DNA of 64,000 bases from Candidatus Woesearchaeota archaeon (GCA_016179945.1 JACPCE010000001.1:9202-73201), one strand, 5' to 3'. Shown: positions 29,087 to 31,282, counted from the stretch's first letter. Translations and numbers: made by a program. The notes: a model not told the origin generated them from the sequence alone.

Positions 29087-31282
29087 TCAATAAATTAAAT
29101 CCTGTATTACTTGATGCATAATCTTTCTAAACTCAACACTAAAAAAATCTTCTATTTCTTTTTTATTTATTAACAAATTTTTATCATTGTAATTACGAAA
29201 TAAACTCAACATTATTTGACGAACATAATAACCCTTCTTATCTATTTCTTGTAGATCGCCACTCAATACATCTGTAATATACAAAATAACACCCAAACCA
29301 ACATCTTTTTCTAGACATAACTCCCCAAGAGGAGCAAGATCCATATCGATTGAAACTAACTCATAAGGTTTAGAAAATAATGACTTAAGTTTATTGAGAA
29401 ATCCCATATGCTCTTGGTATGTCGCCGACATAAAAACATGATGAGTTTTGTAAAAATTATCTGTATTAAAATAACTATTTGAAGGTTTTTCAAGTAAAAT
29501 ATTTTCTATAGGAATTGGTAAATAAAATGAAGGATCTATTCTTACATAACTCTTTGGGTATACATAAATAACTTCAGGAATAACAATAGATTCAACAGGT
29601 ATGTTTTTTACTCCACCAGCAGTACCATAAAATATAAAGGTTTTTAGTCCTTGTTCTATTAAATCATTAACTTGATCCTGTATTGGTGTGCTAATTGGAT
29701 GTGGAAATAATTGCATATTCAAATTACCTATTTTCAGCATTAAAGGAATATCGAATATTGGCGAAACAATATCTTTAATTTTTGATTTATATTTATTCAA
29801 AATTAATTCTAAACTAATTAAAAACCTCTTTATTTCTCTATATTCATCATAGTTGAATAAAGGATTACGTTTATTTCTAAAAATCATATCAAATAATTCA
29901 GCACTTTCCATATCTTTAACTTTAAGTTTTGATACTAAATCCCTCACCTCCTGTTCTTTCATTTCAAAATCTCTTTGATCACTTTCACTAAATCTGCTTA
30001 ATTCAATTAGTTTAAAAAGTGCCTTCAAATAATCAAAAGAAGAGTCTTCGGTATAACCTTGTTTAAAAGGTGTTTGTAAGTAATCATAAAATCTAGTTTT
30101 AAAAGAAAGAGTAATATTCCCATTTGCTTCTTCACTATCAACAGAGAAACCTAAAGAAATTGCCTCTTTAATTAAATTAAATTTCTTCTGGCCAATACTA
30201 ATAGCTCTTCTAGTTTCATATGTTCTAAAACCTTTCTCAGACATGAAATTAAGTACAGTAAAAATAAAATCATTCAATATTAATCTAAAATTTTGATGAA
30301 AGTAAAGTTCTATTGTTTTTTGTAATAATTCATCCCACCAGCCAACTAAGGCTATTGAATTAGGATCCATTGTTTTGTAATATTTATCATCAACCAATTT
30401 TCCAGTTTCTCCAAAATCTAATATTTGTATTTCATCAGGATTAATCCCAGCAGCAAAGGCAAAAGTTTGCATGAAAATAAGAGGCACCCTAGAGTCAATA
30501 CCTGCATAAGCAAATTCAACAGGAACATATTTGTCCTCATCTCTTCCAAATACTATAAACATAGTTCTATCATCTAAATATTTCGCATAAGATTTTTTAG
30601 AAACAGCAACCAAATTTAATACCCCATTCTGAGAATATTTATTAGCTATGAAAGAAATCATTTTATCAACAGGACATAAATAAAGTTTCAGTTTATATTT
30701 CTTAATAAATGGAAGTAAACAATTAGGAAATCGTTCTTTAAGTAAATGTTTTTTAACAAAAACAATTTCTTCTCTTAAGGGGTTGTGTAAATAAACACGT
30801 GGATCGCCCTGTTTTACTCTACGTATTTTTATAACCTTGTCGTACTTACTTACAGTTAGTTCCCTCATATTATAATTAATTCCATTTTGAAAACCAGGAA
30901 CTAATATTTTAAAAAATTTTAAGTCTGATTCAAGATCAACATCAAAAGAAAAACCGCCCAAATCAACTTCTTCTTTCTTCACACTACCTAGTAATATAAT
31001 TATTTCATTTAAGAGTGTTTTATACTTTTCAGGATTGCTAAAAATTTTACTATAAACTTCTTCCCACTTACGTCCATATGACAAAAACGTCTTAAATTTT
31101 ATTAGCAATAATTTATCAGTTATAGGATCAAGTTCCCCACTATCAAGCAAAGTTACAATTAAAGAAATAACTTCTTCATATTGGGGTTCGTTTAGTGGTA
31201 ATTCATATTCAAAAATTTCTTTGAATAATCCTTTTAATACATAATAACACCTGTTTCTTATTTTTTCTTGCATATAATCCAT
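29087..31282 (-). CDS. Large protein with an unknown N-terminal region (~500 aa) and a C-terminal PNP/MTA-nucleosidase-like (PNP_UDP_1 fold) domain
   Basis: The C-terminus FIFYGTAGGVKNIPVESIVIPEVIYVY ... ELVSIDMDLAPLGELCLEKDVGLGVILYITDV parallels the Pfs/MTAN segments NTGSAGGL...GDIVV and AVEMEA...VVRAISDVA. Confidence 0.55.
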   Translation of the reverse strand: MDYMQEKIRNRCYYVLKGLFKEIFEYELPLNEPQYEEVISLIVTLLDSGELDPITDKLLLIKFKTFLSYGRKWEEVYSKIFSNPEKYKTLLNEIIILLGSVKKEEVDLGGFSFDVDLESDLKFFKILVPGFQNGINYNMRELTVSKYDKVIKIRRVKQGDPRVYLHNPLREEIVFVKKHLLKERFPNCLLPFIKKYKLKLYLCPVDKMISFIANKYSQNGVLNLVAVSKKSYAKYLDDRTMFIVFGRDEDKYVPVEFAYAGIDSRVPLIFMQTFAFAAGINPDEIQILDFGETGKLVDDKYYKTMDPNSIALVGWWDELLQKTIELYFHQNFRLILNDFIFTVLNFMSEKGFRTYETRRAISIGQKKFNLIKEAISLGFSVDSEEANGNITLSFKTRFYDYLQTPFKQGYTEDSSFDYLKALFKLIELSRFSESDQRDFEMKEQEVRDLVSKLKVKDMESAELFDMIFRNKRNPLFNYDEYREIKRFLISLELILNKYKSKIKDIVSPIFDIPLMLKIGNLNMQLFPHPISTPIQDQVNDLIEQGLKTFIFYGTAGGVKNIPVESIVIPEVIYVYPKSYVRIDPSFYLPIPIENILLEKPSNSYFNTDNFYKTHHVFMSATYQEHMGFLNKLKSLFSKPYELVSIDMDLAPLGELCLEKDVGLGVILYITDVLSGDLQEIDKKGYYVRQIMLSLFRNYNDKNLLINKKEIEDFFSVEFRKIMHQVIQDLIY

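Follow-up and report, generated by a model that had tools for sequence, protein, structure and literature searches.

An orphan multidomain protein of Woesearchaeota with a truncated NP-I domain, paired with an ADP-ribosylglycohydrolase

Here, we describe X-PNP, a protein encoded in a 64,000-nucleotide stretch of DNA from a Candidatus Woesearchaeota archaeon (JACPCE010000001.1, positions 9202-73201; hereafter, the window), together with the gene that accompanies it. The window has a GC content of ~29%, carries a ribosomal-protein/SecY run along with genes for L34e and prefoldin, and is clearly a DPANN archaeal chromosome. The X-PNP gene (29087..31282, minus strand) is an open reading frame (ORF) of 731 codons plus a stop with an uninterrupted translation, and the two peptides that the initial annotation had quoted from it are both present (FYGTAGGVKNIPVESIVIPEV at residues 551-571 and LVSIDMDLAPLGELC...VILYITDVL at residues 641-673). 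Facing it on the plus strand (27605..29083), with a stop codon 3 bp from that of X-PNP, is the gene for a 492-residue fusion of an ADP-ribosylglycohydrolase (ARH) domain (PF03747) and an HD phosphohydrolase domain (PF01966), which we refer to as ARH-HD. What is new here, as judged by sequence comparison, is a truncated NP-I domain lodged in an orphan multidomain protein that has an obligatory ARH partner.

The true start of X-PNP is probably M4 (ATG at 31273), which gives a protein of 728 residues, because the NCBI copy (HYU23_00220, a hypothetical protein of Candidatus Woesearchaeota archaeon, 100% identical) is annotated at that length and because alignments of homologues with the window protein begin at M4. 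An TTTAAAATA element lies ~26-36 nt upstream of this ATG and fits an archaeal TATA box belonging to the gene itself; in a genome of 29% GC, the occurrence of such a TATA-like element is not significant.

The last ~220 residues of X-PNP read as a divergent NP-I domain, of the purine nucleoside phosphorylase (PNP)/methylthioadenosine nucleosidase (MTAN) type, with a resemblance that goes beyond chance. The domain proper spans residues 511-700 (29183..29752, minus strand), where 22% of positions are invariant in a conservation analysis of the family alignment, and is followed by a C-terminal helix (residues 701-731; 29090..29182, minus strand). Its assignment draws on Pfam family PF01048 (PNP_UDP_1), on Foldseek and on motif alignment, and bears out the PNP/MTA-nucleosidase-like C-terminus put forward in the initial annotation. 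As a single query, the window protein returned nothing significant in Pfam, PHROGs, NCBIfam, PADLOC or the PDB, and its PF01048 score (15.4 bits, E=0.012, aligning residues 541-571 and no more) falls below the curated cut-off of 25.1 bits. PF01048 is matched by all nine family members tested and is the sole Pfam family consistent throughout; three relatives exceed the cut-off (P0004 with 27.8 bits, P0008 with 29.0 bits and P0010 with 36.2 bits, E=5.4e-9), and in every member the match falls on positions ~55-210 of the 233-position profile. NCBIfam adds weak matches of family members to MTA/SAH-nucleosidase, AMP-nucleosidase and DeoD. The link to PNPs is thus detectable only through homologues, and single-sequence searches of the window protein come back blank.

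Structure prediction followed by Foldseek, a check that the initial annotation had suggested, agrees with this assignment. Two AlphaFold models were compared with the PDB, one of the full-length protein (pLDDT 61) and one of residues 505-731 (pLDDT 50), both of low confidence because only 6-9 family sequences are available. For each model the top 50 matches are exclusively NP-I enzymes, including DeoD-type PNPs, MTANs, uridine phosphorylases, AMP nucleosidase and, as the best match, the methylthioadenosine phosphorylase (MTAP) of Sulfolobus solfataricus (1jdv, E=6e-5); TM scores range from 0.4 to 0.52 over the matches. Taken together, sequence profiles and folds place the C-terminal domain inside the NP-I superfamily and outside each of its characterised families.

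In a motif alignment with Escherichia coli MtnN, DeoD and Amn, this truncated domain appears to have intact base and ribose pockets but shows no phosphate site that can be recognised. The G[ST]xGG loop (TGSAGG in MtnN, VGSCGA in DeoD and IGHCGG in Amn) finds its counterpart in YGTAGG (residues 552-557; 29612..29629, minus strand), of which Y552, G553, T554 and G556 are invariant in the family. The ribose-binding E-M-E (E172-M173-E174 in MtnN, E179-M180-E181 in DeoD, D-M-E in Amn) is represented by D646-M647-D648 (29339..29347, minus strand), with VSIDMD aligned to AVEME, GVEME and AIDME, respectively, and with M647 and D648 invariant. The general-acid aspartate of the S-D motif (D197 in MtnN, D204 in DeoD) corresponds to the second residue of T670-D671 (29270..29275, minus strand), also invariant, where ITDV aligns with ISDV in MtnN, VSDH in DeoD and VSDK in Amn. 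The spacing from M647 to D671, 24 residues, is identical to that in MtnN and DeoD. The two segments that had been matched to Pfs from the window sequence correspond to these ribose-binding and general-acid segments. The domain also carries a family-specific segment, YFNTDNFYKTxH. Catalytic-site aspartates have been mutated in two immune nucleosidases with a C-terminal domain of this kind, Cap17 (D472A) and DtcC (D353A) (10.1101/2023.01.24.525353), and D671 would be the equivalent of both.

The missing portion is the first beta-alpha unit (beta1-alpha1), which holds the nucleophile site. The first ~45 residues of MtnN, DeoD and Amn have no counterpart in the alignment, AlphaFold2 predicts helices rather than beta1-alpha1 upstream of the NP-I match, and the Pfam matches start only at profile position ~55. 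MTAN Glu12 lies in the missing region and has no aligned counterpart, and the position of MTAN Arg193 is occupied by an invariant tyrosine (Tyr668). Among the phosphate ligands of DeoD, the alignment offers no counterpart for Gly20, Arg24, Arg43 or Arg87 (the last position being Phe551), and only Ser90 has an equivalent, Thr554. Because the first beta-alpha unit and all the phosphate-binding arginines are gone, the comparison favours a hydrolase (nucleosidase) over a phosphorylase, which is how the choice between the two left by the initial annotation appears to fall. Since enzymes of the NP-I superfamily hold the ribose by its 2',3'-diol and protonate the purine through a conserved Asp, the likely reaction is release of adenine or another purine from a nucleoside- or nucleotide-type substrate. 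It is highly improbable that X-PNP is a conventional purine nucleoside or MTA phosphorylase that serves in salvage and merely has an N-terminal extension. Its best Foldseek matches are S. solfataricus MTAP and DeoD-type PNPs, but counterparts of the hexameric-PNP phosphate ligands Gly20, Arg24, Arg43 and Arg87 are all lacking, the PF01048 match begins only at position ~55 and, for the window protein, stays below the family threshold, and an enzyme of this kind would leave both the obligatory ARH partner and the 500-residue orphan region unexplained.

That orphan region, the N-terminal 510 residues, has no match in Pfam, PHROGs, NCBIfam, PADLOC, PDB sequences or PDB folds, as expected from the initial annotation, which had called these ~500 residues unrecognised. 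When 1.84 billion representative proteins were searched exhaustively with a profile, only members of the family and fragments came back, with no outside matches for any of the three sections of this region. The first, N1 (residues 1-110; 30953..31282, minus strand), is helical (AlphaFold2 helices at residues 8-99, pLDDT ~80) with 6% of positions invariant. The second, N2 (residues 111-335; 30278..30952, minus strand), is an orphan alpha/beta core with 19% of positions invariant and poor AlphaFold2 confidence. The third (residues 336-510; 29753..30277, minus strand) is a helical linker with only 2% invariant, in which relatives have coiled-coil-like insertions of variable length; family members are 730-860 residues long. 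N2 is constrained as strongly as the NP-I domain (19% against 22% invariant), with poorly conserved helices between them. Its motifs are GDPxxYLHNPLRE, ERF, LYLC, AVSKxxY, LDDRTLF, PxE, MQTFAFxAG and GWW, and its invariant polar residues are H166, N167, R170, K177, E183, R184, C203, D237, D238, R239, T240 and E256. From this pattern, N2 is likely to be a ligand-binding or catalytic module.

The N2 profile has no PDB match, and no internal duplication with the C-terminal domain was detected. Inspection of its motifs by eye against ADP-ribosyltransferases (H-Y-E or R-S-E), Pol-beta nucleotidyltransferases, TIR, PD-(D/E)xK, Toprim and 2H gave no convincing fit to any of them. On one metagenome contig (L016), the family gene is split (153..527 and 560..1477, plus strand), with N1 as a separate 124-residue ORF (P0012) and the remainder starting 32 bp after it, which may be either a real domain split or a frameshift. 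The X-PNP of this contig also carries two substitutions, D160N and Y164H, in the GDPxxYLHNP motif.

The strength of conservation in N2 bears on a further possibility, that the NP-I domain is a pseudo-enzyme which binds and senses an adenine nucleotide or ADP-ribose derivative while catalysis resides in N2. Loss of the first beta-alpha unit, with its nucleophile site for water or phosphate, would suit such a protein, as would an N2 conserved to the level of the NP-I domain and rich in invariant polar residues. We consider it very doubtful, as Asp671 and Met647-Asp648 are invariant over 36-57% sequence divergence, a pattern more typical of retained catalysis.

The X-PNP family is extremely rare and sporadic. 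It amounts to 6 clusters among 5.8 billion proteins and to ~10 representatives among the 1.84 billion proteins of the exhaustive profile search, in which no relatives outside the family, and no ordinary PNP at E<1e-3, were recovered. A single locus was found among 185,579 species-representative genomes, in another Candidatus Woesearchaeota, and four more loci come from metagenomes; all named sources are Woesearchaeota. The gene occurs in 7 independent lineages (the window, L005/8/9, L001/2, L003, L004/12, L006/7 and L010/11), across which identity to the window protein is 36-57% and host GC is 29-47%.

In all seven of these lineages, X-PNP is convergent, stop to stop, with an ARH gene. In the window protein the ARH domain (27605..28504, plus strand) covers the whole of the PF03747 profile (E=2e-11, 44.5 bits against a cut-off of 26.2), its metal and catalytic motifs GDALGxPIE, SDET and ADYDT are intact and invariant, and its best PDB relatives are MJ1187 (1t5j) and DraG, with weak NCBIfam matches of the fusion protein to DraG (1.3e-6) and Tri1 (0.015). 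The HD domain (28607..29080, plus strand) is of the type found in bacterial class-II CCA-/A-adding enzymes, to whose HD domains it is 35-50% identical; it matches NCBIfam TIGR02692 (3.1e-25) and the Aquifex A-adding enzyme (3wfo, 2.6e-11), and H353, H382-D383, H402, H434 and D468 are conserved. The partner is thus apparently an active enzyme. Five full-length homologues of ARH-HD were found, a rarity that matches that of X-PNP. In ADP-ribosyl compounds, ARH enzymes cleave the linkage at C1''. No ADP-ribosyltransferase domain is detectable in X-PNP by Pfam or PDB searches.

The HD domain of the partner is usually fused; in L010/L011, ARH is a protein of 271 residues without HD (L010 5899..6714, minus strand), and so HD is either dispensable for the module or encoded elsewhere. 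In three lineages (L003 12679..13341, L004 5006..5533 and L010 5389..5898, all minus strand), a third component, C3 (~170-220 residues), is encoded by a gene of its own that lies between those for X-PNP and ARH. In a fourth (P0015, L006 ~11420..11944), C3 forms a C-terminal extension of ARH-HD by fusion, and the other three, among them the window, lack it. Neither Pfam nor the PDB gives a match to C3. The suggestion that it is a paralogue of N2 is unsupported, with hhalign alignments of 94-100 columns reaching a probability of just 0.3-0.7%. With an ARH that can lack HD and a C3 missing from three lineages, the conserved core is X-PNP plus ARH, and these two probably work together.

The kind of HD domain present raises the idea that the module modifies or repairs RNA, and in particular tRNA 3' ends. 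In RNA, a free 2',3'-diol exists only on the 3'-terminal nucleotide; the NP-I domain would act on a terminal diol such as that of tRNA A76, bacterial CCA enzymes use an HD domain of this type to heal 2',3'-cyclic phosphate ends, and ARH would strip off an adduct of the ADP-ribose type or an abasic ribose. The 35-50% identity to CCA-/A-adding-enzyme HD domains and the conservation of the ribose-diol-binding Asp648 are in keeping with this, and RNA ends are known substrates of ADP-ribosylation that ARH3 can reverse. We nevertheless regard the idea as clearly unlikely: PF13735, the tRNA-binding tail of CCA enzymes, was not detected in ARH-HD with Pfam, L010/L011 do without HD altogether, the near-neutral pI of the X-PNP domains gives no signature of nucleic-acid binding, and the module has no linked genes for tRNAs or RNA processing. 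To our knowledge, no NP-I enzyme acts on a polynucleotide.

Beyond the ARH(-HD)(-C3) genes, all neighbours of X-PNP vary between loci and include primase, SRP54, an Asn-synthase-like gene, PolB, L15e and peptidases. Directly upstream in the window, on the same strand and across a gap of 17 bp, is a fused compact primase of 429 residues (31300..32589, minus strand) that has Pfam matches to the models of both the small (PriS) and large (PriL) subunits. Beyond ARH-HD, and divergent from it, is a gene for a Fic-domain protein (26500..27468, minus strand; best PADLOC match SoFic, 8.5e-17). The initial annotation had placed X-PNP next to the primase and a Fic/ARH block; this describes the window correctly, but as conserved context only ARH is kept, the primase adjoining X-PNP nowhere else. 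Fic was rejected as a part of the system, as it adjoins the module in the window genome alone. A mobile-element or viral origin was likewise set aside, there being no relatives in IMG/VR or INPHARED, no nearby tRNA genes and no GC deviation.

Elsewhere in the window, an ORF at 16600..17865 (plus strand) has the unusual architecture of a class-II aminoacyl-tRNA-synthetase core (tRNA-synt_2, from profile position 72) with a C-terminal DUF2000, and just upstream of it are a B3_4-domain protein and a THUMP methyltransferase. Two large adjacent ORFs, of 443 residues (22833..24164, minus strand) and 598 residues (24172..25968, minus strand), are without family assignment; the latter has sub-threshold CD1107-like and squalene-cyclase-repeat matches at most. 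A small RIO/Bud32-like kinase is encoded at 25986..26516 (plus strand).

In light of this composition, what might the role of X-PNP be? We propose, with a probability of about 0.4, that X-PNP serves as a regulated N-glycosidase of adenine nucleotides or ADP-ribose, within a conflict or toxin-antidote (or abortive-infection-like) module of two genes. We infer the substrate, regulation and conflict role of the module as follows. X-PNP would be the nucleosidase half of a module of two genes (three in some lineages) confined to a few Woesearchaeota. Its NP-I domain would hydrolyse a nucleotide-type substrate with a free 2',3'-diol (ATP, AMP or ADP-ribose-type), releasing a purine, probably adenine. 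N2 would be a sensor/regulator or a second catalytic centre, with the N-terminal region controlling or complementing the nucleotide N-glycosidase. ARH-HD would act on the same ADP-ribose/adenylate chemistry, which would be the theme shared by X-PNP and ARH, either removing or degrading an ADP-ribosyl-type activator or modification, or clearing products.

A conflict or defence role for X-PNP is possible because its distribution is sporadic, its layout is that of a protein with a C-terminal effector, C3 and HD are gained, lost and fused between lineages, and the repertoire brings together PNP, ARH and HD. Conflict systems typically show such modular shuffling, in which components are gained, lost and fused. 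Recent work has identified nucleosidases of the PNP fold as ATP-destroying effectors of bacterial and eukaryotic immunity; we know of no archaeal, ARH-partnered example.

Several observations weigh against this proposal. X-PNP relatives are absent from the viral contigs and phages of IMG/VR and INPHARED. Housekeeping genes surround the module in every locus, and in the window X-PNP itself follows a housekeeping gene run with a gap of 17 bp; the loci examined have no linked integrases, tRNA genes or conserved genes for defence, signalling or mobile elements, and the GC content of the module equals that of its flanks in each. The X-PNP and ARH genes are convergent and not co-transcribed, an orientation that is unusual for toxin-antitoxin or defence operons. 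None of 11 X-PNP members matches the PADLOC models of defence-type PNPs at E<=10; as a control, E. coli MtnN matches PDLC00759 (CBASS PN-superfamily effector) at 1.7e-15 and PDLC04726 at 9.4e-12. Finally, the low confidence of the models (pLDDT 61 and 50) makes the active-site geometry provisional. The initial annotation had gone further and taken the N-terminal sensor plus C-terminal nucleosidase as the layout of a single-chain abortive-infection protein. That part of it does not stand, given the pairing with ARH in 7 of 7 lineages, the absence of a defence-PNP match in PADLOC and the housekeeping surroundings.

These same surroundings speak for salvage or housekeeping, in which X-PNP and ARH-HD would dismantle ADP-ribose, NAD-derived or nucleotide compounds: ARH would cut the ribosyl linkage, HD would take off phosphate and NP-I would free adenine, so that a DPANN cell unable to make nucleotides would gain ribose phosphate and a purine base. 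All loci have a housekeeping context without island hallmarks, GC is ameliorated in hosts of 29 to 47% GC, the three activities could run in series on one ADP-ribose-type molecule, and the weak NCBIfam matches are to metabolic enzymes (MTAN, AMP nucleosidase and DeoD) and not to immune PNPs. Yet a generally useful route is hard to square with a presence in 1 of 185,579 species genomes and in ~7 lineages. At 730-860 residues, with a conserved orphan domain and a coiled-coil linker of variable length, the protein is unlike simple salvage enzymes, and an accessory C3 gene, along with the loss of HD in one lineage, is atypical as well. We therefore hold salvage to be an unlikely explanation, though one to be taken seriously.

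A bolder version of the conflict proposal is that X-PNP and ARH(-HD)(-C3) make up an undescribed, DPANN-restricted system of conflict or signalling linked to ADP-ribose, in which N2 and the truncated NP-I domain would attack an adenylate or ADP-ribosyl target and ARH/HD would reverse or repair the damage. Candidate targets would be the diol-bearing 3'-terminal adenosine of tRNA or an ADP-ribose-derived second messenger. We think it rather improbable that the system takes precisely this form.

If the regulated N-glycosidase that we propose is indeed part of a conflict system, then immunity based on nucleotide depletion or on ADP-ribose reaches the ultra-small DPANN archaea, with a new partner logic (nucleosidase, ADP-ribosyl eraser and phosphoesterase) and with a function for the strongly conserved orphan domain N2. 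If the module is metabolic, it would represent an unusual recycling of ADP-ribose/NAD into purine base by genome-reduced symbionts. In either case, the strict gene pairing provides a concrete hypothesis and a testable lead in an understudied lineage, with an immediate impact that is limited by the rarity of the family and by an uncultivable host.

How does X-PNP compare with known systems? As judged by Pfam, NCBIfam and Foldseek, it belongs to one fold family with MtnN/Pfs and other NP-I hydrolases, and it has in common with them the G[ST]xGG loop, an acid-Met-acid motif, an [ST]-D at 24 residues, and the absence of a phosphate-binding arginine at the DeoD Arg87 position. Streptococcus pyogenes MTAN (4g41) superposes on the X-PNP model with a TM score of 0.52 over 214 columns. 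In contrast with MTAN, X-PNP is without beta1 and alpha1 (and hence Glu12), has Tyr668 for Arg193 and [DE]-M-D for E-M-E, carries the YFNTDNFYKTxH segment, and embeds the domain in a multidomain protein of 730 residues. The hhalign probability between X-PNP and E. coli MtnN is 12.6%, and NCBIfam PRK07164 is matched by 3 of 11 members (best E 1.7e-5). The hexameric PNPs and archaeal MTAP (DeoD, 1jdv) are the best structural matches (E=6e-5, TM 0.41-0.50, 20-21% identity) and have all three motifs in common with X-PNP, but they differ in possessing the phosphate site (Gly20, Arg24, Arg43 and Arg87).

The AMP nucleosidase Amn is similar in its two-part layout, a non-catalytic N-terminal region followed by a C-terminal NP-I hydrolase that acts on a nucleotide. 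Its D-M-E resembles the D-M-D of X-PNP, and 1ybf is among the Foldseek matches (E=2.8e-3); NCBIfam AMP-nucleosidase models match only three family members (E=0.014-0.025). The Amn N-terminal domain has no Pfam match in X-PNP at E<=10, and the N-terminal region of X-PNP is three times longer, with a conserved core of its own.

On the partner side, an ARH gene that is strictly accompanied by a single other gene follows the pattern known from writer/eraser or toxin/immunity pairs. As in Tri1-Tre1 and DraG-DraT, the locus pairs an ARH eraser that has an intact metal site with a single gene. Unlike those systems, X-PNP has no detectable ADP-ribosyltransferase, the ARH is fused to a CCA-type HD, and the genes are convergent instead of forming an operon. 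In the literature, we found no description of an ARH/PNP pairing or of the X-PNP family.

Among immune proteins, the counterparts are Cap17 (of CBASS) and DtcC (of Detocs), which have an N-terminal sensor/regulator and a C-terminal PF01048 domain with an essential catalytic Asp, and which cleave ATP to adenine (10.1101/2023.01.24.525353). Like them, X-PNP has an N-terminal part ahead of a C-terminal PF01048 domain, and a rare, patchy distribution. Cap17 and DtcC differ from it in having a CD-NTase, a histidine kinase or another signalling partner, whereas X-PNP has ARH(-HD), an archaeal DPANN host and housekeeping surroundings. By profile match and by partner genes, X-PNP would thus fall outside the clade of immune ATP nucleosidases. 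In architecture, it appears closest to Cap17, DtcC or Amn, the regulatory part coming first and the NP-I hydrolase lying at the C-terminus.

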